Assembly (NCBI GenBank): GCA_965223155.1
Contig: CBDCVR010000013.1
Span: 864,001 to 928,000 of the forward strand
DNA: 64,000 nt
From: Candidatus Multivoradales bacterium
GTDB lineage: Bacteria; Acidobacteriota; Thermoanaerobaculia; Multivoradales; JAHEKO01
Reading direction: 5' to 3'
Shown: in pieces, positions 6,209 to 47,520 of the stretch
Position numbering within the stretch: the first letter of the stretch is position 1
Layout of the letters: every line of letters starts with the position of its first letter
Notes under the pieces: generated by a model
What the model saw: only the letters and a program-made list of their open reading frames with translations
What the model was told of the DNA's origin: nothing
Databases searched by the model: none
Program-made: the position numbers and the translations under genes

Positions 6209-6226
6209 CGCGGCCGCGCGTCCCGC

Positions 6227-7582: not shown

Positions 7583-7609
7583 GGTTCTCCTCGTTCGATC
7601 AGAAGCCGG

Positions 7610-9345: not shown

Positions 9346-10053
9346 TCAGGCGACCCGATCGGCGCCGCGAACCGCAGCCGGCAACTCGGCGACGCGCTCG
9401 TAGTCGAAGACTTCGGCGAAACGATCCATCGCCGCCACGGCTACCGCCTTCAGGGCCGGAACCTCGCTCGGTCGCTCGTGTTCGATCGAGGTCATCACCA
9501 CCCCGGGGAGCCCGCAAGCCACGATACCTGCGAACAGGGACAGGTCGGTGGCAACGTTGAGGGCGAAACCATGAGTGGTGACCCAGCGGCTCAAATGGAC
9601 GCCGATCGACGCGATCTTGCGCTCCTCCACCCAGACCCCGATCTCGGCCTGCTCGCGACCCGGGGCCGCGGTGATGCCGAAGCCCTCGAGCACCCGCACA
9701 AGCACCTCCTGGAGGTCACGCACGTACCGACGCACGTCCTTCCTGTCTGGAGCCAGATTCAGAATCGGATACCCGACCAGCTGGCCCGGACCGTGGTACG
9801 TCACCTGCCCTCCCCGGTCAGTCGAGGCCAGATCGATGCCCTCTCCGGCCAGCATCTCCGGACTCAGCAACACGTCGCCCTCGCTCGCGGACCGGCCCAG
9901 CGTGTAGATGTGCGGATGCTCCAAGAGCAGCAGGTAGTCCGCGTCTCCGGCTCGCACATCCGCGCGTAGCCGTTCCTGCAGGGCGGTCGCCTGCCCGTAC
10001 TCGAGCCGGCCCAGATACCCGGCCCTCAGCGTCCTCTGTCGACGCGTCGTCAC
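9346..10053 (-). CDS. lipB: Lipoyl(octanoyl) transferase
   Basis: LEHPHIYTLG, DRGGQVTYHGPGQLVGYPI, KIASIG, HGFALN, IVACG. Confidence 0.96.
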   Translation of the reverse strand: MTTRRQRTLRAGYLGRLEYGQATALQERLRADVRAGDADYLLLLEHPHIYTLGRSASEGDVLLSPEMLAGEGIDLASTDRGGQVTYHGPGQLVGYPILNLAPDRKDVRRYVRDLQEVLVRVLEGFGITAAPGREQAEIGVWVEERKIASIGVHLSRWVTTHGFALNVATDLSLFAGIVACGLPGVVMTSIEHERPSEVPALKAVAVAAMDRFAEVFDYERVAELPAAVRGADRVA

Positions 10054-10189
10054 CCGCCCATTCTAGGCGTTTCGGAAAACCCGGCCGAGTTCCGTCAGAA
10101 AAACCGGGGGTCGCGGCAACCCAAGTACAAGAGGGCAACAAGAGCCGATCATGGGGACCGGTTTCGGAGTGCCCTCGGAGGGTTTCCGA

Positions 10190-10429
10190 ATGACCGCCAT
10201 CCGCAACAACCGTCGCCTTCTCGCCGCCCTGTGCCTGGTTCTCGCCAGCCTGGCCTTCGGCACCACGCCGGCAGCCGCCACCGAGACCCGCGTCCCGGCC
10301 GTCGAAGAACGCCTCCAGGAACGGATCTCCGACCTCGTCTTCCACGTTCAGGCGTTCCTCGCCGGCTGGCTCAACCAGTTCGAGAGCGCCCGCGAAGAAG
10401 AAGGGGCGAAGCTAGAAGACGGCAGCTAA
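10190..10429 (+). CDS. Small secreted peptide precursor (79 aa)
   Basis: GGAGG RBS; signal peptide MTAIRNNRRLLAALCLVLASLAFGTTPAAA; acidic tail EEEGAKLEDGS; hairpin follows the stop. Confidence 0.7.
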   Translation: MTAIRNNRRLLAALCLVLASLAFGTTPAAATETRVPAVEERLQERISDLVFHVQAFLAGWLNQFESAREEEGAKLEDGS

Positions 10430-10437
10430 TCCGTTCG

Positions 10438-10471
10438 GGAACGCCCGGTCTTCTCCGGAGCCGGGCGTTCC
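10438..10471 (+). terminator. GC-rich hairpin after the peptide gene
   Basis: GGAACGCCCGG...CCGGGCGTTCC perfect 11-bp inverted repeat; no U-tract. Confidence 0.55.
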
Positions 10472-10518
10472 TGGACAGCCAGACGGGCGGGTGGTAGCTT
10501 GTTGCGACGGAAAGTCAA

Positions 10519-11049
10519 ATGGCTGTGTCCAACGAGTACCGACGCACGGATGTCGATGACATCGTCGGGCTGTTCCGCTCTAGGTCAAGACGGCTGTTGG
10601 TTCGCTTCCGGATTCCCGTTGAGGACGCCGAGGATTTGGTTCAGGATTCACTCGTTCTCTTCCTGCGAAGGCAGCCGGACACGAAGAACGAAGTCGCTTG
10701 GCTCGAAGCAGCCCTTCGATATCGGTGCCTGACCTATTGGAGGGAGCGCCGAAGGCAAACGTACCTTCAGGTGGACCAGTCGATTCTCGAATCCCTCTCG
10801 GAAAAAGATCCGCCGAAACAGGAGCATCGCGTTTTTCTTCACGAGCTGTCATCAATCGTCGACTCGTTGCCCAAGAAGTGTCGCGTTCTACTCAGGCTCA
10901 GATACAAGACCGACCTGAGGCCTGCCGAAATCGCAGACCGACTTGGCTACCGCCGGAGCGGGATCTACAAACTCATCGACCGATGCATTGGAGTCGTAAC
11001 CCGCAAGATCTTTTCCTCCGGATTAGCAAGGCCGAGACGCTATCAATGA
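10519..11049 (+). CDS. ECF-type sigma-70 factor
   Basis: Region 2 EDAEDLVQDSLV...AWL; region 4 LPKKCRVLLRLRY...AEIADRLGY. Confidence 0.88.
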   Translation: MAVSNEYRRTDVDDIVGLFRSRSRRLLVRFRIPVEDAEDLVQDSLVLFLRRQPDTKNEVAWLEAALRYRCLTYWRERRRQTYLQVDQSILESLSEKDPPKQEHRVFLHELSSIVDSLPKKCRVLLRLRYKTDLRPAEIADRLGYRRSGIYKLIDRCIGVVTRKIFSSGLARPRRYQ

Positions 11050-12401
11050 ACCACTTCTCGGCCGAGCAACTTCAGCGATTCTCAGCAGGCAAGCTACCTC
11101 GGAAAGAGCGGGTGATGGTCGCTAGGCACTTGGTGAGTCGCTGTCCCAAGTGCATGCAGATCGCCGATGTCCACTGGAAGAACAGCTTCGCTGGGACCTC
11201 TTCGTCAACTTCTACTGAGGACGACTACTCCGAAGCCTTCGAACGAGGGATCGAAAAGGGATACAGCACTTGGACCCTACTCGGACGCGAACGGAGAGGG
11301 GTCGATGCCCTGTTGCAAGAGCTTCTTGAGCTCCCAGCGAGCCGACAACAGCTCGTCACTGCAAACAGCCCCAGATACTGGAACGCCACGCTCTGCCGGG
11401 AGTTGCTGGAAGAAGCAACCACAGCAGGTGGCTCGGACACCTCACATGCCGTTCATCTCACGCGGTGCGCGATCCAAATCAGCCAGAAGCTTGAGGAAAG
11501 CAAGTACGGCAAGGCTCTGGTCTCAGACCTGCAGGGGCGAGCCTGGACAACGCTCGGATCGATCCTGAGGCTAGCGTCCGACTACGATGGAGCAGAAGAA
11601 GCCTTGACAAAGGCTGCCTACTTCCTCCACACGGGAAGTGGTGATGAGCTAGAAGCCGCCCATCTACTTGCGGTGCAAGCCAGTCTTCTTGTCGCTCGGA
11701 GAAACTTCGATCAGGCATTGCGGATTCACAAGAAGCTGGACAGGGTTTATCGACGCCGCGGCGACAGGCACATGGTCGGCAGAGTTTTCTTGAAGAAGGC
11801 GTGGGTCTTCGCGAAGATGCATGATTCGACGAGGGAGATTGAAGCTCTAAGACAGGCTCGAACTCATCTCGATCCGGCCCAAGACCCGAGGCGTTGGGCC
11901 ATTGCTCAACATCATCTACTTGCGGTATTTGTCGACCAAGGTGAGCTTGAAAAGGCGCAGTCGATGGTCCTAGGTGTCCGCGAAGCGCACTTGGCGCTAG
12001 GGGACGCTCTGGCTCTCATTCGCCTCGAGTGGCTCGAAGCTCGAATCGCCTACAAGAAAGGCGACCTGGCCGAGGCCACGGCCAAGCTCAAGAGCGTTCG
12101 CGACCAGTTCGTTGAGCGGGAGATTGGGATCGACGTCGCGCTGTCGTCCCTGGAGCTGGCCGAGATGCACGCCTCGCAGGGCGAGGTCGAGGCGGCCAAG
12201 GCCCTGCTCGCCGAAGCCATCCCGATTCTCAAGGCCCTCCGGGTAGGCCCCGACACAGTCGCGGCGATGGCCTTCCTCGGCGAGCTGGTCGCTCGCGAGA
12301 CGGTGGAACGCGAGATCTTTCGCCGCGCCGTTGCCTTCGTGCGCAAGGCCCAGAACGATCCCCAGGTGCGCTTCGAGCCCGCCGAGCTGCTAGGCGACTA
12401 G
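11046..12401 (+). CDS. Zinc-finger (HxxxxCxxC) anti-sigma-like domain fused to TPR-like helical repeats
   Basis: ATGA overlap with the sigma stop; MNHFSAEQL...RHLVSRCPKC; helical repeats GRAWTTLGSILRLASDYDGAEEAL; no TM segment evident. Confidence 0.75.
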   Translation: MNHFSAEQLQRFSAGKLPRKERVMVARHLVSRCPKCMQIADVHWKNSFAGTSSSTSTEDDYSEAFERGIEKGYSTWTLLGRERRGVDALLQELLELPASRQQLVTANSPRYWNATLCRELLEEATTAGGSDTSHAVHLTRCAIQISQKLEESKYGKALVSDLQGRAWTTLGSILRLASDYDGAEEALTKAAYFLHTGSGDELEAAHLLAVQASLLVARRNFDQALRIHKKLDRVYRRRGDRHMVGRVFLKKAWVFAKMHDSTREIEALRQARTHLDPAQDPRRWAIAQHHLLAVFVDQGELEKAQSMVLGVREAHLALGDALALIRLEWLEARIAYKKGDLAEATAKLKSVRDQFVEREIGIDVALSSLELAEMHASQGEVEAAKALLAEAIPILKALRVGPDTVAAMAFLGELVARETVEREIFRRAVAFVRKAQNDPQVRFEPAELLGD

Positions 12402-12449
12402 GACCGGCCAGGGCTTCCGGCGCGGCCGCGCCGATCCGGGTCCGGTCTC

Positions 12450-13889
12450 CTAGAGGAAGGGATCCAACTCGCCCCAGGTTTCCTCGGCCAGGGTGCGCTT
12501 GACATCGTTCATGAAGTGGTCGGCGTCGGCCCCGTCCACCAGCCGGTGGTCGTAGGTGATCGCGAAGTACGACATATGCTTGATGGCGATGATGTCGTTG
12601 CCTTCGCGGTCCATATCCACGACTGGACGCTTCTCGATCGCGCCCAGGCCCAGGATCGCCACCTGCGGTTGATTGATGATGGGGGTGCCGAAGAGCGAGC
12701 CGAAGACCCCCGGATTGGTCACGGTGAAGGTCCCGCCTTGCACCTCGTGCGGCTGGAGCTTCTTTGCGCGAGCGCGCTCCGCCAGGTCATTGGCGGTCTT
12801 GGCCAGCCCGACCAGATTGAGCTGGTCGGCGTTCCGGATCACCGGCACGATGAGTCCCCAGTCCAGAGCCACCGCCATGCCGACGTTGATGTCTTTCTTG
12901 AACACGATGTTGGTGCCGTCGACCGAGGCGTTGAGCTTAGGGTGCGCCTTGAGCGCGCTTGCCACGGCCCGGAAGATGAACGGCATGTACGTCAGCTTGG
13001 TGCCGTGGGCGGCCTGGAAGCCGCCTTTAGCGCGGTTCCGGATGCGGGCCACGCGGGCCATATCGATATGGAAGACCGTGGTGACGTGGGCGGAGGTAGC
13101 CTTCGAATAGGTCATGTGCGCCGAGGTGATCTGGCGGATCTTCGACATCGGAACGATCTCGACGCTATCGCCCTCCGAGTACGGCGCCACCGAAAAATCG
13201 CCGGCGTCTCGACGCATCGGAGTCACGACCTGCGCCTGGACCGCGCCCGACGGCGCCGGCGTCGGAACCTCCGAAGCCGCCGCGGCCGCTGGCTCGGCTG
13301 GCTCGGCAGGGGCGGCGTCCGCGCCACCTCCGGCGAGAAAGGCCTCCAGGTCCCGCTTGGTTACCCGGCCGTGGATCCCAGTCCCTGAGACCTGCGAGAG
13401 ATCGACCCCGGCCTCCTTCGCCATCTTGCGCACCACCGGGCTCGAGAACTTGCGGACCCGCTCGGTATCCGGGTCGTCGGCACCGGAGCCATCCGAGAGG
13501 TCTGAAGAATCTGGGTCATCGGAGCCAGCGGAGCCAGCAGAGTCATCGGAGCCAGCGTCCGAGGTCGGAGCTTTCGCGGCGGCCTTCTCCGCCGGCTCGC
13601 TGCCGGCGGCAGCAGGCTCGGCCTCGGCTGGAGCCTCCCGAGGCTGGTCTCCGGGCTCGCCCAGGATCGCCACGATCTCGTTGATGGCAACCGTCGCGCC
13701 CTCCTCGAACTTGACCTCCAGCAAGACGCCGTCGGCCGGGCTCGGGATCTCGGCATCGACCTTGTCGGTCGAGATCTCGAAGAGCGGCTGATCGCGCTCG
13801 ACGCTGTCTCCGACCTTTGCGAGCCAGCGGGTGATAGTACCCTCGGCGATCGACTCGCCCATCTGCGGCATGATGACTTCGGTTGTCAT
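12450..13889 (-). CDS. sucB: 2-oxoacid dehydrogenase E2 (dihydrolipoamide acyltransferase, SucB-like)
   Basis: Lipoyl domain EISTDKVDAEIPSP, E3-binding SPVVRKMA...GTGIHGRVTKRD, catalytic YDHRLVDG. Confidence 0.88.
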   Translation of the reverse strand: MTTEVIMPQMGESIAEGTITRWLAKVGDSVERDQPLFEISTDKVDAEIPSPADGVLLEVKFEEGATVAINEIVAILGEPGDQPREAPAEAEPAAAGSEPAEKAAAKAPTSDAGSDDSAGSAGSDDPDSSDLSDGSGADDPDTERVRKFSSPVVRKMAKEAGVDLSQVSGTGIHGRVTKRDLEAFLAGGGADAAPAEPAEPAAAAASEVPTPAPSGAVQAQVVTPMRRDAGDFSVAPYSEGDSVEIVPMSKIRQITSAHMTYSKATSAHVTTVFHIDMARVARIRNRAKGGFQAAHGTKLTYMPFIFRAVASALKAHPKLNASVDGTNIVFKKDINVGMAVALDWGLIVPVIRNADQLNLVGLAKTANDLAERARAKKLQPHEVQGGTFTVTNPGVFGSLFGTPIINQPQVAILGLGAIEKRPVVDMDREGNDIIAIKHMSYFAITYDHRLVDGADADHFMNDVKRTLAEETWGELDPFL

Positions 13890-13937
13890 GAAGCTCTCTC
13901 CATCGGGCCGGGCCGGGTCGGGCTCGACCGGTCCGTT

Positions 13938-15332
13938 CTAGACGTGAATGGCGTGTCCCGCGGCCGCGTGGGCCGCCTCGGCCATCGCCTCCGACAAGGT
14001 CGGATGCGCATGAATCGTGCGAAACAACTCTTCCGTTGTGGATTCGATCTTGAGTGCTACGCAGGCTTCGGCAATGAGGTCCGTCGCCCGGGTTCCGATG
14101 ATGTGGACCCCGAGAAGCTGGTCGTGCCGAGTTTCGCGTACGACCTTGACGAAGCCGGCGGTCTTGCCTTCGATCGCCGCCTTGCCCGAGGCCGAGAACG
14201 GAAACTTGCCAACCGCGACCTCGTAGCCCCGCTCACGAGCTTCGGCTTCGGACAGGCCGACGCTTCCGACCTCGGGCTCGCAATACGTCACCGACGGAAC
14301 CTGGTCGTAGTCGAGCGGCCGGGTCTCGGCTCCGGCCATGTGCTCAGCCGCGACGATGCCCTCGGCCGAGGCGACATGCGCCAACCAACGGGTCGGAACC
14401 ACGTCTCCGATCGCGTAGATCGAAGGCACGGACGTCTGCAAGAACTCGTTGACCGTGACGTAGCCGCGCTCGGTCGCCACGCCGGCCTCGTCCAGCCCCA
14501 GCCCTTCCGTGACCGGCGCACGCCCGATGGCAATCAGGAGTATCTCGGCGGTCACCGGCTCTTGCTTGGCGTTCTTCTCCAGTACCACTTCGACCGCGCC
14601 GCCCCGAACCTCGGCTCCGGCCAACTTGGTCGCGGTCTTGACCTTGATGCCGCGCTTCTTGAAATTGCGAGCCAGCTCCTTCGAGATCTCTTCATCTTCG
14701 AGCGGCAGGATCCTGGGCAACATCTCGACCAGTGTGACCTCGGAGCGAAACGAGCGAAAGATAGACGAGAACTCGCTTCCCACCGCTCCCGATCCGACCA
14801 CAACCAACGACTCGGGGACCCGGTCCACTTCGAGCAGGTGATCGGAGTTGACGATGTGCCGCCCATCGGTTGGCGCCATCGGAATCTCGCGCGGTACCGA
14901 GCCGGTCGCGATGAGGATGTTCTTAGTCTCGATCCGGCGCGTGCCGTCCGGGCTCGCGACCTCGACAACTGAAGGCGAGACGACCCGGCCGAGGCCGTGG
15001 ATCCCTTCGATCTTGTTTTTCTTGAACAGAAATTCGATGCCTTTTGCGTTCTTGTCGACCACGCCGCGCTTGTAGGCCTGGGCGGTCTCGAGCTCGAGCT
15101 CGGGATCGCCCACCGCAACGCCGAAGCGGCCGGCCTCGCGCACCTCTTCGAGCACGTTCGCTGTGTGGAGCAACGCTTTCGTGGGAATGCAGCCTCGGTG
15201 GAGACAGGTCCCGCCGAACTTGGGGTCCTTCTCGACCACGGCTACGTTGAACCCCAGCTGAGCCGCCCGAATGGCGGCCACGTAGCCTCCTGGGCCGCTG
15301 CCGATGACAACCAGGTCCTTCGCGTCGCTCAT
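13938..15332 (-). CDS. lpdA: Dihydrolipoyl dehydrogenase
   Basis: GSGPGGYVAA, GGTCLHRGCIPTK, HAHPTLSE; start MSDAKD. Confidence 0.96.
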   Translation of the reverse strand: MSDAKDLVVIGSGPGGYVAAIRAAQLGFNVAVVEKDPKFGGTCLHRGCIPTKALLHTANVLEEVREAGRFGVAVGDPELELETAQAYKRGVVDKNAKGIEFLFKKNKIEGIHGLGRVVSPSVVEVASPDGTRRIETKNILIATGSVPREIPMAPTDGRHIVNSDHLLEVDRVPESLVVVGSGAVGSEFSSIFRSFRSEVTLVEMLPRILPLEDEEISKELARNFKKRGIKVKTATKLAGAEVRGGAVEVVLEKNAKQEPVTAEILLIAIGRAPVTEGLGLDEAGVATERGYVTVNEFLQTSVPSIYAIGDVVPTRWLAHVASAEGIVAAEHMAGAETRPLDYDQVPSVTYCEPEVGSVGLSEAEARERGYEVAVGKFPFSASGKAAIEGKTAGFVKVVRETRHDQLLGVHIIGTRATDLIAEACVALKIESTTEELFRTIHAHPTLSEAMAEAAHAAAGHAIHV

Positions 15333-15375
15333 CGTCCCGCTCACTTTATCCCTTCGCGGCCGATCGCCGTCGCTT

Positions 15376-16239
15376 TCATTCGGCCGCCACCGGCTCGACC
15401 GCGAACCGGCCCGGCTTGTCCTCGATGAGGTGCCCGACGGGGACGTCAGGATCGTGCTCGAACACACATAGCCAGCCTTCATCGAAGGCGCGCGGCAGCC
15501 AGCGTTGCTTGTTCTCAAGGGTCTCGACCGGATAGAGATCAAAGCCCATGATCCAGGGAAGCGGCACATGCGCCGTGGTCGGCACGAGATCCGCCCAGTA
15601 GACGGCGCGCTCGGCCCCCGAGCCTCCGGCCCCCCCACCTCGGATACAGACTACGCACATGTCCGCGTTGTGGCCCGACACCTTGACCGCCCGCACGCCG
15701 GGAATCGGTTCCGCCTCCCCATCGAACTCGCGTACCACGCCCGCCTCGAAGAGCGGCTGCCAGTTGCGCTTGTCGTAGCTTGCCCGGTCCCGAAGAGTGG
15801 GATTGCGGGCGTGGGCCAGCTCGCCCCGCTCGATCCAGTAGGTGGCGCGCGGGAAGGTCGGTACGAGCTCGGCACCGTCACTCCGGGTATTCCAGCCGCA
15901 GTGATCGAAATGGAGATGGGTCAGAAGGACATGATCCACGTCCTCCAAGGAGAAGCCGGCCTCCTGGATCGACTCCGGCAGCCTTCGGGCTCCTTCCTCC
16001 AGGCCAAAGATGTCCGCGAACTTCTCGTCGTTCTTGTCCCCAAGACCGGTGTCGATGAGCACTAAGCCGGCCTCGCTCTGAACCAGCAGGCAATTCGTGG
16101 CCATGCGAATCCGGTTGCGCTCGTCCGGAGGGGCGACTCTCTGCCACAGAACCTTCGGCACAACCCCGAACATGGCCCCTCCGTCGAGCCGGAAGCCGCC
16201 GTCGCTGACCACGTGAAGATCGAACTCGCCCAGCCGCAT
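15376..16239 (-). CDS. MBL-fold metallo-hydrolase (YtnP-like)
   Basis: LDGGAMFGVVPK, THLHFDHCG, FEHDP. Confidence 0.9.
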   Translation of the reverse strand: MRLGEFDLHVVSDGGFRLDGGAMFGVVPKVLWQRVAPPDERNRIRMATNCLLVQSEAGLVLIDTGLGDKNDEKFADIFGLEEGARRLPESIQEAGFSLEDVDHVLLTHLHFDHCGWNTRSDGAELVPTFPRATYWIERGELAHARNPTLRDRASYDKRNWQPLFEAGVVREFDGEAEPIPGVRAVKVSGHNADMCVVCIRGGGAGGSGAERAVYWADLVPTTAHVPLPWIMGFDLYPVETLENKQRWLPRAFDEGWLCVFEHDPDVPVGHLIEDKPGRFAVEPVAAE

Positions 16240-28567: not shown

Positions 28568-28663
28568 TGGCGCGAAAGGGCAAAGCCGGCGAAAGCCGGT
28601 GACGCAAAGCCGCGTCTCCTCCCGCCCTCTCCGGACGAAAGACCGCCGGGCTGCCGAACGCTG
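28568..28663 (+). ncRNA. Cyclic di-GMP-I (GEMM-I) riboswitch
   Basis: GAAAGGGCAAAGCCGGC-GAAA-GCCGGTGACGCAAAGC...GCCGGGCTGCCGAA matches the GEMM consensus (GNRA-capped P2, GACGCAAAGC, GGG.TGCCG). Confidence 0.88.
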
Positions 28664-28710
28664 GATTGCCTGACGCGATGGAGTGTCAGCGAGACAGGCA
28701 GGAGGTTGGC

Positions 28711-28866
28711 ATGAACCGCATCATCACTCACACCGCCAAGCCCGGCGGAACGATTCGCGCGGTCGCGGGCATCACCCCGAACGGCCGGAGTTGGAAGCCG
28801 TGTTCCCGCGACGAGGCGGTAGCCGACGACCACAGCTATTTCGTGGCCCGCCCGGACGACGCCTAG
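28711..28866 (+). CDS. 51-aa ORF downstream of the riboswitch, resembling the N-terminal half of a DUF3892 protein (possibly truncated)
   Basis: GGAGG RBS; MNRIITHTAK...W.P.SRDEAVAD.HSYFV. Confidence 0.5.
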   Translation: MNRIITHTAKPGGTIRAVAGITPNGRSWKPCSRDEAVADDHSYFVARPDDA

Positions 28867-35618: not shown

Positions 35619-37067
35619 ATGACCGAATATGACTTCCGCCAGTTCTACATCAACGGCGCCTGGGTCGAGCCGGCCGAGCCCAACGACTTCGCCGTCATCA
35701 ACCCCGCGACCGAAGAGCCTGTCGGCACCATCTCTCTAGGCGGCGAGCAAGACGTCGATCGAGCCGTGGCCGCGGCGCGGCAGGCGTTTCCCGAGTTCAG
35801 CTCCACGACCCGTACCCAGCGGATCGAGCTCATGGAGGCCATCCTCGCCGTCTACGCCACCCGCCACGACGAGATCGCGCGGGCGATCACCGAGGAGATG
35901 GGCGCGCCCTTCGCGATGTCCAAACGATCCCAAGCGGCGATGACCGTCAAGCACTTCACGACGACCCTCGATGCCCTGCGGACGTTCGAGTTCGAAGAGC
36001 ACCACGGCACGACCTCCGTCGTCCGCGAGCCCATCGGCGTCTGCGGCCTCATCACGCCCTGGAATTGGCCGATGAACCAGATCGCCTGCAAGGTGGCGCC
36101 GGCGCTAGCAGCCGGTTGCACCATCGTCCTCAAGCCTTCGGAGCTGTCGGCTCTGTCGGCCTGCCTCTTCGCCGAGGTCCTGGACGCGGCCGGCGTGCCG
36201 GCGGGCGTCTTCAACCTTGTCAACGGCGACGGCCCCACCGTGGGCGCCGCCATCGCCGCCCACGCGGAGGTGGATCTGGTCTCCTTCACCGGCTCGACGC
36301 GGGCCGGGATCCAGGTCGCTCTCAACGCGGCGCCGACGGTCAAGCGGGTGGCCCAGGAACTGGGCGGCAAGTCCGCCAACATCCTGCTCGACGACGCCGA
36401 CTTCGAGAAGGCCGTGGCCTCGGGCGTCAACCACTGCATGGGCAACTCCGGTCAATCCTGCAACGCCCCGACCCGGATGCTGGTCCCGGTCGAACGGCAG
36501 GCCGAGGCCGCAGAGATCGCCGCCCGCGCCGCCCGAAAGATCAAGGTGGGCGACCCTCATGCCGAAGACACCGTCATTGGCCCGGTGGCCAGCCGCGGTC
36601 AGTGGGAGCGCATTCAGGCACTTCTCGAAGCGGGTATCGCCGAAGGCGCCGAGCTCGTCACCGGCGGTCCTGGCCGCCCCGACGGGCTCGACAAGGGCTT
36701 CTACGTGCGGCCCACGGTCTTTGCCGGCGTCACCAACGACATGGTGATCGCGCGCGAAGAGATCTTCGGCCCGGTGCTCTCGATCCTGCCCTACGACGGC
36801 GAAGAGCAAGCCATTCGCATCGCCAACGACAGTCCCTACGGTCTTTCCGGATACGTTCACTCGGCCGACCACGAGCGGGCCCGCCGCGTTGCCCGGCGCA
36901 TCCGGACCGGCATGGTCCACGTCAACGGCGCACCCAACGACTACACCGCCCCGTTCGGCGGCTACAAACAGTCGGGTAACGGCAGAGAGTGGGGCGCCCA
37001 CGGCCTCGAAGAATTCCTCGAGACCAAAGCCATCATCGGCGACCGGCCGAAAGCGGCGAGCGGCTAG
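35619..37067 (+). CDS. Aldehyde dehydrogenase
   Basis: ITPWNWP, FTGST, ELGGKS, GQSC, EEIFGPV, PFGGYKQSG. Confidence 0.96.
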   Translation: MTEYDFRQFYINGAWVEPAEPNDFAVINPATEEPVGTISLGGEQDVDRAVAAARQAFPEFSSTTRTQRIELMEAILAVYATRHDEIARAITEEMGAPFAMSKRSQAAMTVKHFTTTLDALRTFEFEEHHGTTSVVREPIGVCGLITPWNWPMNQIACKVAPALAAGCTIVLKPSELSALSACLFAEVLDAAGVPAGVFNLVNGDGPTVGAAIAAHAEVDLVSFTGSTRAGIQVALNAAPTVKRVAQELGGKSANILLDDADFEKAVASGVNHCMGNSGQSCNAPTRMLVPVERQAEAAEIAARAARKIKVGDPHAEDTVIGPVASRGQWERIQALLEAGIAEGAELVTGGPGRPDGLDKGFYVRPTVFAGVTNDMVIAREEIFGPVLSILPYDGEEQAIRIANDSPYGLSGYVHSADHERARRVARRIRTGMVHVNGAPNDYTAPFGGYKQSGNGREWGAHGLEEFLETKAIIGDRPKAASG

Positions 37068-38262
37068 AGCACGGCATAGCTAGTCGAGACGAGAACGTCG
37101 TCGGGACAATCTGCTGTGAAGATCGAGAAATTCTCCACCCACTACCGGGTGATCCCCTCGTCATGAGCGTTCAGTATCTGTCTCAGCCCAAGCCGGACCG
37201 CACCTTCACTCTGGAGGAGCTCCGCCACCTCACCGGAGCCCTCGACGGGACCGTTCCGGGAGGTTTCAACGATACCTTCCCTAGCCACGCCATGACCACG
37301 ATCTCCGGCGACGGGCACGACACGCTGCCCTCCCTGGCACTGCCATCCAGCCTGGAAATCGACTCCATCTCAATCGCCAGCGGAAGGATACGCGACTTGG
37401 CTCCGGGGGACCTGGCCCGCCGTCTCTTGGAAACCGTACCCGGGCATTGGGACCCGCGGTTCTTCCCCTTGATTGCGGCAGACTGCACTTTGGATTCAGC
37501 GCGGCTCGACCCTGACCATCCCCAGGCGCTGATGGTGCGCCCAGGAGCTGCAACCCCTAACACAACGCTTCACTTCCTCTACGCTTCTTCCCCCGCCACG
37601 ACCGAGCGCGGCCGATGGTACGACGTTGTGTCCCAAAGAATGGACTTGCCCTGGCGCGTCGTGTGGGGCGAGGGCGGCAGTTTCACTATCAAAGCCACGA
37701 GCGAGCTCGAAATCCGAGTTCACCCTGACGTCGAGCCCACAATGGTGACATGGCCCATTCCCGATCTCGAGCTTCGGGAAATACCGCTATTTTTCCACCG
37801 GTTTCTCGAAGCCATTCCATCCGCGCAGGTCTTCGAAACTCAGTGGGCCGTATACCGCCTGGGCAACTTTCCGGGCGTACTTAGTATCTACTACGATCTG
37901 CTCGCGCTGCAATGGCCGATCGGGTCGGAGGGATCCCGCCTCTACCTGAGCGGTAACCTCGGACGATTCGAGGATCTCGACGAGTTTCGCGCCCTGCCCT
38001 CCGGCATTGCAGCCGAGACCTGGATCGGCAGCTGCACCAGTTTCCTCGACCCCGAGAGCTTCGAGGTCGAACCGGGCCACTTCGGCTACTGCCGCCTTCT
38101 CGTTCTGACCGACGGCGATGGGCACCGCCTGCGGGTCGAGGGCCAGCATGAAGAGGGTGCCGAGCACTTGTACGCTGCCTTGGGGCTCGACTGGGAAGGA
38201 CGATACAGCTAGATGGTCCCAAACCGCATCATCGGCGACCGGCCGAAGGCGGCGAGCGGCTA
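37031..38262 (+). repeat. 36-bp direct repeat of the ALDH 3' end (37031-37066 and 38227-38262) flanking one gene
   Basis: CATCATCGGCGACCGGCCGAA(A/G)GCGGCGAGCGGCTA, one mismatch. Confidence 0.9.
37163..38212 (+). CDS. Hypothetical protein lying between the direct repeats
   Basis: 349-aa ORF from MSVQYLS, less GC-biased than neighbours, no recognised motif. Confidence 0.7.
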   Translation: MSVQYLSQPKPDRTFTLEELRHLTGALDGTVPGGFNDTFPSHAMTTISGDGHDTLPSLALPSSLEIDSISIASGRIRDLAPGDLARRLLETVPGHWDPRFFPLIAADCTLDSARLDPDHPQALMVRPGAATPNTTLHFLYASSPATTERGRWYDVVSQRMDLPWRVVWGEGGSFTIKATSELEIRVHPDVEPTMVTWPIPDLELREIPLFFHRFLEAIPSAQVFETQWAVYRLGNFPGVLSIYYDLLALQWPIGSEGSRLYLSGNLGRFEDLDEFRALPSGIAAETWIGSCTSFLDPESFEVEPGHFGYCRLLVLTDGDGHRLRVEGQHEEGAEHLYAALGLDWEGRYS

Positions 38263-38389: not shown

Positions 38390-39514
38390 ATGACGAACGC
38401 CTTCACGTTTTCCGACACGCCCTATCCGATACGCGACGATCTCGTCGCCGCGTATCGCAACTTCTGGCGCCAGTTGGCGGATCCCGGCACCTGGTGGACC
38501 GGCGAGGAACGGGTGGCGATCGCCGAGGCAGTGCGCTCGGCCAGCCACTGTGCGTTCTGCGCCGAACGAAAGACTGCCTTGTCTCCGTATGGACTCGCTG
38601 GCGAGCACGACGCCGCCCCCGACTCGCCTTTGGACGCGACTACTATCGATGCCGTGCACCGAGTCGTCACCGACCAGACGCGCATTACGAAGTCCTGGAT
38701 CCAAGACAACGCGGCGAATGGCCTGTCGGAGGGAAAGTACGTCGAGCTGGTTGGCGTAGCTGTCTGCGTTCTCGGCATCGATGAGTTTTGCCGTTCGCTC
38801 GGATTGCCGCTCGAGCCCTTGCCAGCGGCGATCGACGGCCAACCAACCGAATACGTGCCGGACGGTCTGGAAAGCGAGACAGCCATGGTGTCGGTGATCG
38901 GCGCCGACAAGCTCGGACCGGCGGAAAGTGACCTGTGGCCGCCAAACGGAACGGCCAATGTCATTCGCGCGCTCAGCCAGGTGCCCGACGCGGTCAGGCA
39001 GTGGGTTGCCCTGAGTGAGGCCCAGTATCTGGCGGCCGGCGATGTGGGCAACCCCGCCGCCGACACGAATCGCGCGCTCAACCGCATGCAGATGGAACTC
39101 GTCGCGGGGCGCGTGTCTTCGTCGAATGAGTGCTTCTACTGAACCGCCTCGCACGCAACGCTGCTCCGTGCGAGCGCGCAGATCCATGACACCGTTGCGG
39201 ACCTGCAGCAGGTTCACGGCGGAGCCAGTGAGACCAGCGAGATCGAACTCTCGAACGAGTTGACCTCGTTCGCGACGGCGGTTGTCGGCCAAGACGAAGC
39301 GGCCTTGGCCGAAAGCCGCGAGCGACTACTCGCCGCTTCGAACGCCCAAGTGCTGGTCGATGCCGCAGCCGTTGCCGCGAATTTTCAACGTCTGGTGCGG
39401 ATCGCCGACACGATCGGCATCCCGCTTGACGAGGACTTCGCGCGGATGGCCGAACCTGCGGTCGCCGGCCTCGAGCTGCGCCGCTTCAGGACCGCGGAAC
39501 ATACGCCTGGATAA
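38390..39514 (+). CDS. AhpD/CMD-like peroxidase-related protein, probable selenoprotein (UGA 39140-39142 read as Sec)
   Basis: N-terminal CAFC; ELVAGRVSSSNECFY-UGA-TASH forms CxxUxxxH; frame stays open to 39514 and joins ORF 39260-39514. Confidence 0.82.
39148..39174 (+). promoter_or_regulatory. SECIS-like hairpin just 3' of the UGA
   Basis: CTCGCACG...CGTGCGAG 8-bp stem starting 5 nt after the UGA; identical in the second copy. Confidence 0.55.
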
Positions 39515-39661
39515 GGGGCCTCGGACTCTGGTCTCGGCGGCAGCTTGAAGGCGGCGAGTCCCTAGTGAGACGGCGGTCGCCGCAACGACCTCCTCCCCAC
39601 GGTTCGATTCAGCGATCCGCCAAGTACCGATTCGCCACCCTCGCGTGCGCTCGCGACGGAC

Positions 39662-42211: not shown

Positions 42212-42790
42212 ACGTTTCCGCGGAAACGTTTCCTTACGCCGAGTTGACCGCTCCTTCCGAACCCTCGGGCTCCCGCCGCAGTGCCCGATAGGCCTGAACC
42301 GCCCAGGCGAGATCGATCGACCTGCCGTTCCAGGTCGGAAAGCCCGTCATCGCATCGACCTCGATCCCGCGCTCGGCGTTCTGAGACCGGATTGCTTCGC
42401 CGGGCCGCGCCGGCAACGGTGGCGGGGCCGGCGCTTCTTCGATCCGAAGTCCATTTGGCGTAAAGAAATCGACTGAACCGCTGCGGTGCAAGAGCACCTT
42501 GAAGCCCTCTTCGTGGACGGCTCGATGGTGGCGGCGGCAGAGGAGAACCAGGTTGTCGAGGCGTGTGGCGCCGCCGTCGGCCCAATGTTTGACATGGTGG
42601 GCGTCGCAAATCCTGACGCCACAACCAGGGAAGCGACAGCCTCGGTCCCGAAAACGTAGAGCTCGGCGGACAGCGGGAGGCACGGTGCGCGTTTTCCGCC
42701 CGACGTCGAGGGTCGAACCGTCACGAGCGTGGCGCATGTCCCCCTTCGAAGCATCGCAGGCGAGACGGCGGGACGTTTCCGCGGAAACGT
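42212..42790. repeat. Perfect 18-bp palindrome ACGTTTCCGCGGAAACGT at 42212-42229 and 42773-42790
   Basis: Read directly; one copy encodes NVSAET inside the HNH gene, the other lies just past its stop. Confidence 0.9.
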
Positions 42791-43634
42791 TCGTGCCGCC
42801 CTCGACAACCGCGTGGCCGGAGTCCGAGCGATCCGCCAAGGCCTCGGCGTCAACGTGCACGACCACCTGGTGGTGGTCACCGCCGGTCGTCGCGTCGGCG
42901 CCGCCCAGCCCGCGACCGAGCGCGGCTTCGGCAACCAGGCCAAAGGCGTCGGCACGCCGCCTCTCGGCACCGCGCTCGCCTTCCTCGACCGTCGCGGCGT
43001 CCTCAGCCTCTGAGTCCGAGCGATAGAGCTTGTCCTCGGCGGCTTCGAGCGCCTTCAAGAACATCGCCCCGGCTTCCGGTTCGAGCCGAGCGCGGACCAC
43101 CCGCATGCCGTCTTCGTCGGTGTAGGCGCGCACGTACCGCTGGCTCCGCCGACGCTTGGAGACTTCCGCCTCCTCCAGCCGGTCCATGCGGCGCCAGGCA
43201 CGAATCAGTCGTTCGACGTGCGAGGCCGTACCCGCTCGGGCAAAGGTTAAGAGCTCCGCCTCATTCTCGGTGGTGGCAACACGCGTCAGGGCGCGCACCT
43301 TCGAGTACGAGATCTCGCCGCGCTCCATCGCCGCACCGATCTTCGGGAGATTCCCGAGGGCCCGCGCCACCCGGACCTTTTCGCGAGCCGCACCCAGGTC
43401 CAGGCCCGTACGCCATGAGAGCCAGTGCGCACAGGAACGAGCACCCTTGGCGTGCCAACCCTCGCGCCGGTCGAACTCCCGAATCAGAGTGAGTACGCGA
43501 TACGTGGCGGCCTGAATCTGAGCCGAGAGCTCGGCGATCCGATCCCCTATCTGGTCGAGATCGCCCGCGGCCTCGAACGGTTCGTCTGCGGAACTGGCGG
43601 TGACTCGTTGCGGTGCGGAAGCGGCGAAGTTCAT
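42234..43634 (-). CDS. DUF222 domain HNH endonuclease (13E12-like)
   Basis: SCAHWLSWRTG, SYSKVRALTR, RRADA, RRLACDA, RDRGCRFPGC, DAHHVKHWADGG, NLVLLCRRHHRAVH. Confidence 0.9.
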   Translation of the reverse strand: MNFAASAPQRVTASSADEPFEAAGDLDQIGDRIAELSAQIQAATYRVLTLIREFDRREGWHAKGARSCAHWLSWRTGLDLGAAREKVRVARALGNLPKIGAAMERGEISYSKVRALTRVATTENEAELLTFARAGTASHVERLIRAWRRMDRLEEAEVSKRRRSQRYVRAYTDEDGMRVVRARLEPEAGAMFLKALEAAEDKLYRSDSEAEDAATVEEGERGAERRRADAFGLVAEAALGRGLGGADATTGGDHHQVVVHVDAEALADRSDSGHAVVEGGTNVSAETSRRLACDASKGDMRHARDGSTLDVGRKTRTVPPAVRRALRFRDRGCRFPGCGVRICDAHHVKHWADGGATRLDNLVLLCRRHHRAVHEEGFKVLLHRSGSVDFFTPNGLRIEEAPAPPPLPARPGEAIRSQNAERGIEVDAMTGFPTWNGRSIDLAWAVQAYRALRREPEGSEGAVNSA

Positions 43635-43640
43635 TGACTG

Positions 43641-43669
43641 AATTTACGCTTTATTTGCGCCATTGTCAA
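43641..43669 (-). promoter_or_regulatory. Sigma70 promoter for the HNH gene, leaderless
   Basis: TTGACA-17 nt-TAAATT-6 nt-ATG on the minus strand; no SD. Confidence 0.72.
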
Positions 43670-43763
43670 GGCAAGCCTGCCTCCCAGATCAAGCCTGCGT
43701 CGAGCAGAAAATCCAAGCAGCTATTGGCGTCTACGAAAACGGTGGTACCCGGGACCCCCAGCT

Positions 43764-44429
43764 AGCCACTGTGCGTTCTGCGCCGAACGAAAGACTGCCT
43801 TGTCTCCGTATGGCCTGGCCGGCGAGCACGACGCCTCCCCCGACTCGCCTCTGGAGGCGACTGCCATCGATGCCGTGCACCGAGTCGTCACCGACCAGAC
43901 GCGCATTACGAAGTCCTGGATCCAGGAGAACTCGGAGAGTGGCCTTGCGGAGGGGAAGTACGTCGAGCTGGTCGGCGTGGCCGTCTGCGTCTTCGGTATC
44001 GACGAGTTTTGCCGTTCGCTCGGATTGCCGCTCGAGCCCTTGCCCGCGGCGATCGACGGCCAACCAACCGAATACGTGCCGGCCGGTCTGGAAAGCGAGA
44101 CAGCCATAGTGTCGGTGATCGGCGCCGACAAGCTCGGACCGGCGGAAAGCGACCTATGGCCGCCAAACGAAACGGCCAATGTCATTCGCGCGCTCAGCCT
44201 GGTGCCCGACGCGGTCAGGGAATGGGTTGCCCTGAGTGAGGCGCAGTATCTGGCGGCCCACGATGTGGGCAACCCCGCCGCCGACACGAATCGCGCGCTC
44301 AACCGCATGCAGATGGAACTTGTCGCGGGGCGCGTGTCTTCGTCGAATGAGTGCTTCTACTGAACCGCCTCGCACGCAACGCTGCTCCGTGCGAGCGCGC
44401 AAATCCACGACACCGTCGCCGACCTCCAG
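43764..44429 (+). pseudogene. 666-bp diverged internal duplicate of the AhpD-like gene (38543-39208)
   Basis: Colinear and same length; lacks the 5' start and 3' end; keeps CFY-TGA and the hairpin. Confidence 0.85.
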
Positions 44430-44594
44430 TACCCCGAGACAGATCACTCCTGTTTCGGCGTAGCAGTGTCGCTGGAGTTAGATCAGAGCTCTACCAAGAA
44501 ACTAAGATTCTTGTCAGAAACGCCCCTGTTCCGGAAATTAGATAGGTAGAGCTACCCAAACTTCCTTGGAGTAGATGAGGCAAGAGGAGCGAGA

Positions 44595-45407
44595 ATGCGA
44601 GTGACAAGAAATCTAAAGAAGAGTACTGCGAGTATCGCTGCACTGTGTGCAGTTCTATCCCCCGCAGCCGCCACCGCGCAGTCCACAGGACCCCGCACTC
44701 AGTTTGGCGCCGAAAGTTTCCACGAGAACCACAGTGCCACGGCGACATCCTTGACGACTTCGCGCGGCTTCTCCGTGGTCGTCGTCGAAGCACACGAGCA
44801 CGTTGGCGAAAAGCTATTCAACGACGCCATTCGAGTGAGCGTCAGCAGCCCCTGGGGAGAGCACTTCGAGGCCTACTTCGTAGATCACAGGAGCTTCAAG
44901 AGAATCCGAATCGTCGGAGTGGGAGAGTACAAGTTCTACCCCGGTCCAGAGGCGGGCCCTCTCACAACACCCATGGACTTCGTCTCGATCGAGACAGCTC
45001 AAGGTGTTCGAGGAGAGCACGTCGGCAACCGTGTAGAACGAGTGACCCATGGCCTGGAAACGATCGACAACATCGACCTGTACCAGGACATGGCGCTCGA
45101 GATCCACAAGAGCTTCTCGCCAGAATTCCTTGAGGGTCTTAGAGAGCTCAGCCGTCCCAGCCTCGTGCCGGCAGGCTGCAGTCTCGAGATACTGGAATGT
45201 TCTCTCGCGGTGATAGGGTGGATTGGAAGCGTAGCCGCTTTCGGACCGGCCTGTGTATATGGACTGACTCTGGGGTGTATCGCCGCGATCCTTGTCCATG
45301 AAGCTGCCAACGGCAGCGTCATCATCGCTTGCGGCAAAGCCGGCGCCTGCCTACAGGCAGAACAAGAGGAGGCTCAGCATCCCCGGACCAATCCGGACTG
45401 CGGATAG
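44595..45407 (+). CDS. Secreted protein with Cys-rich hydrophobic C-terminal region (bacteriocin-precursor-like)
   Basis: GAGGAG RBS, signal peptide, C-terminal GCSLEILECS...ACVYGLTLGCIAAIL...ACGKAGAC. Confidence 0.68.
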   Translation: MRVTRNLKKSTASIAALCAVLSPAAATAQSTGPRTQFGAESFHENHSATATSLTTSRGFSVVVVEAHEHVGEKLFNDAIRVSVSSPWGEHFEAYFVDHRSFKRIRIVGVGEYKFYPGPEAGPLTTPMDFVSIETAQGVRGEHVGNRVERVTHGLETIDNIDLYQDMALEIHKSFSPEFLEGLRELSRPSLVPAGCSLEILECSLAVIGWIGSVAAFGPACVYGLTLGCIAAILVHEAANGSVIIACGKAGACLQAEQEEAQHPRTNPDCG

Positions 45408-45431
45408 AGTCAATCCTCTGAGGAGCGCGTC

Positions 45432-45734
45432 GTGGATTCAACACCTTGGCTCATCGCTCAACTCGTCATTGGCAACGTACTCTTGCTGATCATGCTCGGG
45501 TCCATGCGCGTCGGAGATCTCGAGAGGCAGGGAAAGAGGCTTCCCGCAATCGGGATGTTCGTCGCGTGTCTTTCCCTCTTTCTGTTGGCCGGAATCGCAC
45601 TCGCCCGGAACCTGGGTACGTGGTCCGAAACGCAAGTGGTCTTGAGCGCACTAGGCTTCGGCGCCCTATCGGCACTTACGATTCTGGCTGGCGTGCGGGT
45701 GTGGCGGTTTCCTTCTTCTCGGCACGGCGCATGA
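45432..45734 (+). CDS. Small three-TM membrane protein (possible immunity protein)
   Basis: GAGGAG RBS; three hydrophobic helices; directly follows the previous gene. Confidence 0.65.
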   Translation: MDSTPWLIAQLVIGNVLLLIMLGSMRVGDLERQGKRLPAIGMFVACLSLFLLAGIALARNLGTWSETQVVLSALGFGALSALTILAGVRVWRFPSSRHGA

Positions 45735-45981
45735 CCGAATAGCCGAACCGTCGAAAAGGCGACGAAAGGCTATTCGAGGCCGACGTCAAGCGAGGCGTCC
45801 GGTGTAGGTAGCGGCTGCTTGCACGAAGTGCCAGGCACGTCCAAATGAGGGACCGTTGGCGAGAGACCGTCGCGGCCGGCAGGATTGCGAGGAATAGGTA
45901 TCCTTCTATGAGTCGGTCGGTTGGCGTCAAGAGTTTCGTTTCTTCTTTTTGTAGTTTTCCTTAGGTTTGGATCGAGGCTTG

Positions 45982-46116
45982 GGACGAGCTTCTATTCGCA
46001 CTCTGTAGGGTTCTTCTTTGAACCGGTGCATGGTGAGTTTTGCGTCCGTTTAGGAATCGATGCTCCCATCTGTCACACGGTGTCGGGGCCACCAAGGATA
46101 CTTTCGGAGTCATCGA
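45982..46116 (-). ncRNA. Bridge/seek RNA in the 3' noncoding end of the IS
   Basis: Two stem-internal loop-stem units; loop 1 carries GTATCCTT and GTGACAGA, which match the two flanks of the insertion site. Confidence 0.8.
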
Positions 46117-46160
46117 ACCTCTCAATCCGTCCTTGCTTGTTGGTCGTCTAGTTATCTCTT

Positions 46161-47174
46161 CTACGCTGCCTTGGGAAAGGCTCGGAAGCTCTCACCTGTC
46201 ACCCACAGCCTGTGGAGCAACACCGCGATCTTCCTAGCTAGCGCGACCACGGCCTTGCCCTTACCCAGCCTCTCGACCAGGCCCTCAGCCCATCTCTTGA
46301 GTGACGACTCTTTGCGACAGTTCAACGCCGCATGAGCTGCCTGCACCAAGAGTCTGCGCATCTCCGAGTCGCCCTCGCGAGTGATCCGGCCCCTGACCTC
46401 ATGCCCTCCTGAGCTGCGAAGCGACGGTCTCAAGCCCAGACACGCTCCGACGTCGCGGCTTTTCTCGAACCGATCCGGACGATCCATCCAGCCGACGAAC
46501 GCAAGGCTCACCAGAGGCCCCACACCAGGAACCGTCTGCAGCCGACGGACCAGCTCGTTTGATCTCGACTCGGAGATGAGGTCGTCTTCGAGATGGTGGA
46601 TCCGATCGGTCAGCTCGCCGATTGTCGTTACCAGAGGTTCGAGCGCTCCCAACAGGCCGGCTTCGACCGACATCGACGCGTACCGAGCCACGAAGCTCTT
46701 CGCCGGACATGAGGGCACTCGGTAGCCCTGTGCCCGCAGCGTTCCGCGTACGGAGTTGATCAGCGAGGTCCTGGTCTTCACCAGACTCGTTCGGACCCGA
46801 AGACGCGTCCGAAGCTCTTGGGCCTCACCTGTGCGCTGGTAGACTGGTCGAAGCAAACCCAGATCCAACCGGCTCAAACGAGCCAGGATCTCGGCGTCGA
46901 TTCCGTCCGTCTTCAGGGTCGATTCCGCGATCAGACGTACCCGGCGTGGATTGACCACCATCACCTCATGGCCGAGCTCAGACAGCAGTCGATAGACCCA
47001 GGGTGTGACCGGACCGCTCTCGAGCGTCACCTGCGAGCGTTCCCGATTGGCGAAGAACCTTCGCAGGCCCGTCTCGGTCGTCGGAACCCGCCGGCGAACC
47101 GTCACCTCACCGTCTTCTGATACGCCACACACCTCGCTGTACTTCGAGTGAACATCGATGCCAAGATACTCCAT
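46161..47174 (-). CDS. IS110-family DEDD transposase/recombinase
   Basis: LGIDVHS, LESG, KTDGIDAEILA, VPGVG, GLRPSLRSSG, ALARKIAV; AAAGGAG RBS. Confidence 0.95.
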   Translation of the reverse strand: MEYLGIDVHSKYSEVCGVSEDGEVTVRRRVPTTETGLRRFFANRERSQVTLESGPVTPWVYRLLSELGHEVMVVNPRRVRLIAESTLKTDGIDAEILARLSRLDLGLLRPVYQRTGEAQELRTRLRVRTSLVKTRTSLINSVRGTLRAQGYRVPSCPAKSFVARYASMSVEAGLLGALEPLVTTIGELTDRIHHLEDDLISESRSNELVRRLQTVPGVGPLVSLAFVGWMDRPDRFEKSRDVGACLGLRPSLRSSGGHEVRGRITREGDSEMRRLLVQAAHAALNCRKESSLKRWAEGLVERLGKGKAVVALARKIAVLLHRLWVTGESFRAFPKAA

Positions 47175-47520
47175 GGTCGGTCTCCTTTCTCGGCTCTGAT
47201 GCCGATTCTTGGTTATCTCCAACTGGCACAGTGTCCCAGCTGGAGACCGACCGACTCATCTCATCTGTCACCGCTTCGACCGTTTCGACAGCTCGGAGCT
47301 TCGCGGCACCGTCAATCCACCACCGGCCAGCCGGGTCGGCCCGTTCAGGCCAGTGTTCTGCTCCACGAGCCTACGGCCCCTCCCTTCTAAGGCTTCCACC
47401 CTGAATCTGCCGCTGAACTGTCGGGACAACGGGGTCTGCTTCTAAAATCCCGCTACCATGCCGACCATCGCCGTAACTCCTGGCATCTCGATTCGCCGCT
47501 CCCCGTAGGTCGAGGAGAAA

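Follow-up and report, generated by a model that had tools for sequence, protein, structure and literature searches.

An AhpD-related gene of a Multivoradales bacterium with an in-frame UGA that is probably read as selenocysteine

The closest described relatives of the gene reported here entered the literature as 'hypothetical protein 1' of the Sargasso Sea selenoproteome, which Zhang, Fomenko and Gladyshev (2005) presented on the basis of four sequences that share a CXXU motif and have a predicted selenocysteine insertion sequence (SECIS; PMC1088965). The table of a 2026 review equates this protein with the NCBIfam family NF041238 and keeps the 'AhpD-like' selenoproteins (TIGR01926) as a separate family (PMC13188914). 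The latter, COG2128/TIGR01926 proteins with a CxxU motif, figure in the Sargasso and Global Ocean Sampling survey papers as the larger family (PMC1088965, PMC2398784). NF041238 itself, 'AhpD_rel_CFYUT', is an equivalog model for alkylhydroperoxidase-related (seleno)proteins, and its name spells the C-F-Y-U-T motif that we see here. We describe a member of this family in a 64,000-nucleotide stretch of DNA (the window: contig CBDCVR010000013.1, positions 864,001 to 928,000, forward strand) from a Candidatus Multivoradales bacterium. The gene is complete, occupies 38390..39517 on the plus strand and holds a single in-frame TGA at 39140..39142, the proposed selenocysteine (Sec) codon U251, which is very probably decoded as Sec in the source organism.

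The open reading frame (ORF) starts with the ATG at 38390 and runs to the TGA, the residues before this stop being S-S-N-E-C-F-Y. Beyond the TGA the same frame reads T-A-S-H-A-T-L-L-R-A-S and continues as far as the TAA at 39515-39517, for a total of 374 codons and residues. The original prediction had noted just this, an ORF that 'stops' at ECFY-TGA while its frame stays open to 39514, and this is confirmed. The TGA stands at the fourth position of C248-F-Y-U251, that is, in the place of the second Cys of a CxxCxxxH motif, and the whole redox motif, C248-F-Y-U251-T-A-S-H255, lies at 39131..39154 (plus strand). C248, Y250, position 251 and H255 are invariant in family alignment A4. A further motif, C54-A-F-C57 (C54-x-x-C57), is encoded near the N-terminus at 38549..38560 on the plus strand; alignment A2 shows both of its Cys as invariant, and in alignment A4 their conservation is 90% or more. 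The first in-frame ATG, GTG or TTG past the TGA is a TTG at 39260. Because this nearest start is 40 codons off, residues 252-290, including the invariant H255, can be produced by read-through only. The part after the TGA is intact over its 123 codons and matches the NF041238 profile to its end. These results support the view that 38390-39517 is one gene for a 374-residue read-through protein related to AhpD.

The read-through protein matches NF041238 with an E value of 2.3e-127 and 425.1 bits (cutoff 175), its residues 14-367 aligning with profile positions 1-356 of 357, and it carries the motif that gives the family its name, as E-C-F-Y-TGA-T-A-S-H; the same motif is found in 80 of 80 related loci. 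Pfam searches with the 250-residue part alone or with the 123-residue part alone returned no match. With NF041238 and 'hypothetical protein 1', as far as these are described in the review and the survey, the window protein shares the C-F-Y-U-T and CxxU motifs. Its architecture of about 370 residues is common to 79 of the 80 related loci, and nothing essential differs from those relatives, except that the window genome carries an extra, truncated copy. The protein lacks the ATG at position 258 that most relatives have, is at most 59% identical to the relatives on genome contigs and reaches 70-73% identity with the nearest metagenomic fragments. The prediction of an AhpD-like selenoprotein was right as to the AhpD-type CxxU motif, but this label names the neighbouring family TIGR01926, for which the protein scores 35 bits against a cutoff of 81.8; the exact family is NF041238. 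In the published surveys the CxxU of the 'AhpD-like' selenoproteins is equally placed in an AhpD-type motif, and both families come from similar marine bacteria. Nor is the selenoprotein 'hidden', as had been claimed, since the NCBI pipeline already has a model named after its motif. The reading is correct and its novelty is low: the first description of the family dates from 2005, and NCBI maintains a curated model for it.

Structural comparisons place the UGA inside a domain. A search of the family profile against the PDB matched residues ~165-346 to 3c1l, 6k40, 2oyo and 2pfx with E values from 2e-15 to 4e-13. The CxxC motifs of these structures align on C248/U251, with the CxxCxxxH of 3c1l and 6k40 aligned on the whole redox motif, so that the UGA falls midway through a single domain; the claim that it occupies the second Cys of the AhpD motif is borne out. 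An AlphaFold2 model built from a 56-row alignment is a single compact helical globule (predicted local distance difference test score 95.7, predicted template modelling score 0.94), unbroken at residue 251, in which a helix, 249-265, begins at the redox motif. The best PDB matches of this model in Foldseek are the AhpD-core structures 2prr, 6k40, 2oyo and 3c1l, with target-normalised template modelling scores of 0.60-0.74, and weaker matches go to the two-lobed Sestrin2. Compared with 'peroxidase-related' proteins of the AhpD/carboxymuconolactone-decarboxylase (CMD) fold (3c1l, which is Mlr4105; 6k40, the AhpD of D. radiodurans; 2oyo; 2prr), the C-terminal half of the window protein, ~165-346, aligns at E values of 2e-15 to 4e-11, whereas the protein as a whole is twice as long, has Sec in place of the second Cys and adds an N-terminal helical lobe of about 160 residues with its own invariant CxxC. 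This lobe has no sequence-family match in Pfam, NCBIfam or the PDB. In the ESM Atlas, residues 1-185 retrieved unnamed clusters of 236-263 residues and one cluster of 378 residues with CMD in 60% of its members; these clusters seem to belong to the family itself and add nothing further.

The TGA is conserved in the nearest relatives on genome contigs. We scanned these contigs, found 520 relatives and kept the best 80, which come mostly from metagenome-assembled genomes (MAGs) of marine Gammaproteobacteria. All 80 of these loci have a TGA after C[FY]Y. The frame beyond it is open in 76 of them for 120-158 further codons, starting T-x-[SA]-H-[AS]-x-M-L, and in three the contig ends before the frame does. 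At one locus, L030:10733-10780, a 1-nt deletion 9 nt past the TGA breaks the frame, which makes it either a pseudogene or a MAG assembly error. Four loci with the same TGA and stem-loop (L029, L063, L066 and L078) lie in MAGs labelled Bacteroidia, Flavobacterium, Verrucomicrobiales and Limisphaerales, which points to cross-phylum spread or binning contamination.

Most of the more distant full-length homologues have Cys at the position of the UGA. A HMMER search of 1.84 billion representative sequences yielded 1460 relatives, among them 30 with at least 300 residues. Cys occupies the position of U251, within C-x-Y-C-x-x-x-H and with the protein continuing through the C-terminal part, in 25 of these 30 full-length representatives, although a few of these Cys might be converted U; of the other five, two have Gly, one ends at FY and two are uncovered or unaligned at the position. 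Database proteins close to the window protein look different. The best 120 matches in a collection of 5.8 billion proteins nearly all have 246-263 residues and span 66% of the query, and in 117 of the 120 the last residues are [NS][EQ]C[FY]Y, at a length of about 247-250 residues, the expected product of a gene caller that stops at TGA. Together these results agree with the prediction of a single 374-residue protein with CxxC and CxxU sites that annotation pipelines split: it rests on the NF041238 match, the conserved TGA and the Cys homologues, the last of which had been proposed as a check.

We aligned 48 nt, counted from the TGA, of the window gene and of all 80 loci (78 distinct sequences). 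The RNAalifold consensus is a small stem-loop, GCUC, a 5-nt loop and GAGC in columns 24-27 and 33-36, and is not the hairpin of the original prediction. In the window the family-conserved SECIS candidate lies at 39159..39178 on the plus strand, with a 7-bp stem, a bulged U39162 and an apical loop CGUGC at 39167-39171; its core is the RNAalifold consensus, 39163-39166 paired with 39172-39175. The four core pairs form in all 78 distinct sequences, and the core is part of the local minimum free energy (MFE) structure in 77 of 77. Among the core pairs, a CG-to-UA double change, made of two synonymous substitutions, occurs in two sequences and GC-to-GU in 12. A second long-range stem present in many relatives (columns 8-18 with 28-38) pairs in 72.6% of alignment cells, shows no covariation and was set aside.

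Codon usage shows where the RNA is constrained. Counting synonymous codons per conserved column in 76 distinct genes, we found Leu259 to be CTC in all but two genes (74 of 76; entropy 0.18 bits, where the other conserved Leu columns have 1.96-2.53) and Arg260 written CGT in 58 of 61 (0.28 bits against 1.87-2.49 at other conserved Arg columns), while Ser262 is AGC in 63 and AGT in 13 (0.66 bits). Tyr250, just before the UGA, is TAC in 74 of 76 (0.18 bits, where other conserved Tyr columns have ~1.0). The codons that form the 5' arm of the originally predicted hairpin, Thr252, His255 and Ala256, vary normally, with 1.33, 0.98 and 1.64 bits. Thus the RNA-level constraint sits on the small stem-loop, whose codons Leu259, Arg260 and Ser262 are frozen, and not on the longer hairpin, whose 5' arm codons are free.

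The rules for bacterial SECIS (bSECIS) elements given in the legend to Fig. 2 of the 2026 review are a loop of 3-9 nt, a stem of 4-16 bp, a G among the first two loop bases, a distance of 16-37 nt from the UGA and an energy of at most -7.5 kcal/mol (PMC13188914). The window stem-loop at 39159-39178 satisfies all the rules of that legend: its loop has 5 nt and begins with a base that precedes GU, so that G stands second, its stem has 4-7 bp, its distance from the UGA is 24 nt and its local MFE is -8.8 kcal/mol. Compared with the bSECIS consensus, the family stem-loop is very small and unusually near sequence-invariant, GCUC-NGUNN-GAGY.

The longer hairpin, at 39145..39178 on the plus strand, exists as it was described: after a 5-nt spacer past the TGA it forms a perfect 8-bp stem, 39148-39155 with 39167-39174, and extends to 39145-39178 in the MFE fold, at -17.8 kcal/mol; it overlaps the conserved stem-loop, with which it would compete. 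Against dinucleotide shuffles of three short windows it gives z-scores of -1.9 to -2.4, with 9, 3 and 5 of 200 shuffles folding as well, and a 73-nt context gives -0.04, with an equally good fold in 82 of 200; the hairpin is only modestly unusual in sequence of 65% GC. It is not conserved in the family. Over the 78 sequences 66% of its alignment cells pair, its lower pairs hold in only 5-22 of the 78, and none of five measures exceeds the shuffles. Its apical loop is ACGC, with G third, and this loop starts 15 nt past the UGA, which breaks the rules in the review legend. A bacterial SECIS scan had been suggested as a check; by the published rules the longer hairpin falls outside and the smaller stem-loop within, and the functional SECIS core is probably not the longer hairpin.

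In some relatives the gene lies beside genes of the Sec machinery. Within 10 kb of it, 6 of the 80 relatives have a tRNA-Sec (L001, L003, L014, L046, L047 and L050), five have selA and selB and three have selD. In L001, which is 59% identical and together with L002 the most similar relative, the tRNA-Sec ends 57 nt ahead of the gene. Locus L047 holds the full set over 5686-13544, in the order selA, selB, tRNA-Sec, a divergent peroxiredoxin-like (Prx-like) ORF, the AhpD-related gene, a GGDEF gene and selD; its proteins score 582 bits with TIGR00474 (selA), 373 bits with TIGR00475 (selB) and 530 bits with NF002098 (selD). The Prx-like ORF, 9134-9829 on the minus strand, is the divergent neighbour of the AhpD-related gene and contains one in-frame TGA, in W-U-P-F-C (UxxC). 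In L014 the same Sec genes have a divergent arrangement, with selA, selB and tRNA-Sec divergently upstream. The AhpD-related gene thus stands inside a Sec cluster in Woeseiaceae-type relatives.

TGA is an ordinary stop codon elsewhere in the window. The 46 long ORFs end in TAG (26), TGA (17) and TAA (3), and global recoding of TGA (codes 4 or 25) is excluded, as TGA ends 17 of these 46. The lipoyl synthase, for example, ends at TGA, and its profile match reaches its last residues. As a trinucleotide, TGA occurs 1271 times in the window, whose GC content is 65%, twice as often as TAG (619 times), and a preference for TAG stops is unusual for a GC-rich genome. A six-frame scan of the window for TGA in CxxU or UxxC with open flanks gave 20 candidates; apart from the gene (copy A) and its truncated copy (copy B), these were judged by eye to be Arg-rich off-frame stretches over other genes and were rejected as selenoproteins.

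Copy B, at 43761..44431 on the plus strand, is a truncated paralogous fragment that corresponds to residues ~52-273 and has its own TGA at 44361-44363 and an identical hairpin region. Homology between the copies is ungapped from about 43761/43764 to about 44431, at ~93% identity. The 39 nt after the TGA are identical in both, and the next five differences, CAG/CAA, CAT/CAC, GTT/GTC, GCG/GCC and CTG/CTC, are all synonymous in the read-through frame. The identical TGA and hairpin and the five synonymous changes had been stated for 44361-44429 in the original prediction and were verified. Upstream of the TGA 33 codons differ, 18 of them synonymously and 15 nonsynonymously; under this proportion, five synonymous changes in a row have a chance of about 0.05, and the changes are few. 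They fit coding constraint in the read-through frame. Overall, 23 of the 38 differing codons are synonymous, and therefore selection acted on both copies during most of their divergence, and the truncation came recently. Missing from copy B are the first ~51 codons, the CxxC and the last ~100 residues; its first in-frame start, a TTG at 43800, lies past the CxxC, and the resulting ORF, 43800-44363 (187 residues), is found verbatim as protein P0121 of a public library. Copy B is dead, the remnant of a paralogue that was once under selection, and has mobile-element genes as neighbours.

These genes are a DUF222/HNH endonuclease gene immediately upstream of copy B (42234..43634, minus strand; PF02720 114.9 bits, PF01844 31.6 bits) and an IS110-family transposase gene downstream of it (46161..47222, minus strand; NF033542 241 bits, with PF01548 and PF02371). 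Over 44350-46300 the GC content is 0.52-0.60, against about 0.65 elsewhere, and this dip after copy B, which ends in the transposase gene, holds two ORFs to which no family was assigned, 44595-45407, with a signal-peptide-like start, and 45432-45734. The DUF222/HNH gene, copy B, the GC dip and the transposase gene together make a mobile-looking block at 42234-47222.

From these data we propose how the gene would work. The stem-loop at 39159-39178, which starts 16 nt past the UGA, would recruit SelB carrying Sec-tRNA(Sec), and Sec would be inserted at the second position of the AhpD-type C-x-x-C-x-x-x-H. The product would be a 374-residue, all-helical, two-lobed thiol/selenol oxidoreductase in which C248/U251 may cycle between selenol/thiol and selenenylsulfide, like the CxxC pair of AhpD-like proteins, and may reduce a partner peroxiredoxin or a small oxidant. 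The N-terminal C54xxC57, together with the invariant H73 and H90, could serve as a relay or a metal site. A peroxiredoxin partner is suggested, by analogy, by the Prx-like selenoprotein next to the gene in L047; the window holds no such neighbour, and no peroxiredoxin gene adjoins the window gene in the manner of AhpD proper.

A bolder proposal, which we regard as rather unlikely, is that the whole SelB signal is a minimal, almost invariant 13-nt stem-loop, GCUC-NGUNN-GAGY, fixed 20 nt past the UGA and spread via a portable Sec island, copy B being a footprint of transfer. On this proposal the stem-loop would have been kept identical from this GC-rich lineage to Gammaproteobacteria and to the MAGs labelled Bacteroidia and Verrucomicrobiota, the Woeseiaceae-type order selA-selB-tRNA-Sec-(Prx-like UxxC)-AhpD-related-selD would represent the island, and copy B would have been transferred and not have arisen by local duplication.

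Several observations weigh against Sec decoding at this locus. The 64-kb window holds no tRNA-Sec (ARAGORN finds no tRNA at all in it, and Rfam no tRNA-Sec at gathering thresholds), and neither NCBIfam searches of 47 ORFs nor tblastn with the L047 proteins found selA, selB or selD there. The shuffle control of the small stem-loop is weak: of 500 shuffles, 23 reach the observed percentage of pairing and 18 have at least as many double-change pairs as the real alignment, the covariation support being weak because most pairs never vary. In the relatives the stem-loop is less stable than in the window, with a median local MFE of -6.0 kcal/mol and only 12 of 77 sequences reaching -7.5, and in the window itself the far more stable longer hairpin (-17.8 kcal/mol) uses the same 3' arm. 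The general AhpD models fit the whole protein below threshold, with 20.7 bits against 23 for the Pfam CMD domain (PF02627, residues 227-261) and 20.5 against 27.8 bits for TIGR00778. The one full-length database protein that NCBI names 'alkylhydroperoxidase-related (seleno)protein', P0041 (408 residues), has an unexplained V at the U/C position (CFYVTSSH) in the protein collection; the V may stand in for U there, or the gene may truly encode it. The papers cited here describe no experiment on any member of the family.

The main rival to Sec decoding holds that the gene is a relic and that its genome has no Sec machinery. If that machinery was lost or never present, the UGA would be a true stop, and the gene, with a 250-residue product, would be decaying as copy B has. 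The lack of sel genes and tRNA-Sec in 64 kb fits such a relic, whereas six of 80 relatives keep them beside the gene, and so do the TGA stops of other window genes and the dead copy and mobile-element genes nearby. However, 74 of the 80 relatives also have no sel genes within 10 kb, and the absence from the window therefore says little. A decaying gene is moreover at odds with 123 post-TGA codons that are intact and matched by the profile to their end, with an intact stem-loop and with post-TGA changes relative to copy B that are all five synonymous, and a 250-residue product would stop in the middle of the AhpD-like domain. We consider this explanation improbable.

Two further explanations are less probable still. 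The UGA might be read through without Sec, by near-cognate Trp or Cys insertion or as Cys-tRNA(Sec), giving a full-length sulfur protein. Cys forms are evidently functional, judging by the 25 of 30 distant homologues, and nothing in the window proves the use of selenium; yet the TGA is kept in all 80 diverged loci with no drift to TGC or TGT, an RNA element is frozen at the right distance, and sel genes are physically linked in some relatives. The retained TGA, the frozen RNA element and the linked sel genes point to SelB-dependent decoding, and non-Sec read-through is very improbable. Alternatively, the locus could hold two separate genes, one for a 250-residue protein and one for an independently initiated ORF, with the hairpin as a terminator or a chance fold. 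Gene callers do output this, 117 of the 120 nearest proteins stopping at CFY, and the z-score of the hairpin is modest. But with the first start 40 codons past the TGA, a conserved stretch with the invariant H255 would be left untranslated, while the Cys homologues are continuous and the junction falls inside a single PDB domain and a single confident fold. Two genes are thus hardly credible here, and Sec decoding of the UGA is the reading that we adopt.

In tblastn searches of 14 window ORFs around the gene against the 80 loci only the aldehyde dehydrogenase was found, in two loci and at other distances; as no conserved synteny with the relatives emerged, the neighbours give no functional hint. 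A segment of 1196 bp just ahead of the selenoprotein gene is bracketed by the two copies of a 36-nt direct repeat, 37031-37066 and 38227-38262, which are 97% identical. The first copy of the repeat is the 3' end of the aldehyde dehydrogenase gene, and the bracketed segment holds an ORF at 36989-38212 (plus strand, 407 residues) that is protein-like and has no Pfam or NCBIfam match. The segment has the appearance of an insertion by which the aldehyde dehydrogenase gene had its end rebuilt. Rfam at gathering thresholds reports no SECIS family in the window, and its sole match there is a c-di-GMP-I riboswitch at 28569-28658 on the plus strand (RF01051, 54 bits against a gathering threshold of 35); it is followed on that strand only by a 66-residue ORF, 28666-28866, and faces a minus-strand gene for a sodium/solute symporter. 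At 8282-15638, 23-30 kb upstream of the selenoprotein gene, the window encodes lipoyl synthase, dihydrolipoyl dehydrogenase and a SucB/E2 dihydrolipoamide acyltransferase, whose best model, SucB_Actino, gives 436.6 bits (cutoff 423). Mycobacterial AhpD receives its electrons from Lpd and from DlaT, an E2 protein. A link between the lipoyl/Lpd genes and the selenoprotein gene is doubtful at this distance.

The findings on the AhpD-related gene leave current understanding unchanged, and their consequences are for annotation and for the family. The locus should be annotated as a single coding sequence of 374 codons with a Sec codon at 39140-39142, rather than as a 250-residue 'hypothetical protein', and most public predictions of the family are cut at the Sec codon in the same way, as in the 117 of 120 nearest proteins. 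With its paired Sec and Cys forms and its tiny frozen SECIS, the family is convenient for the study of a minimal bacterial SECIS, the more so as some relatives link the gene to selA, selB, selC, selD and a Prx-like selenoprotein. The gene marks the source organism as a probable selenium user and gives the family, most of whose known members are from marine Gammaproteobacteria, a representative in a GC-rich lineage.

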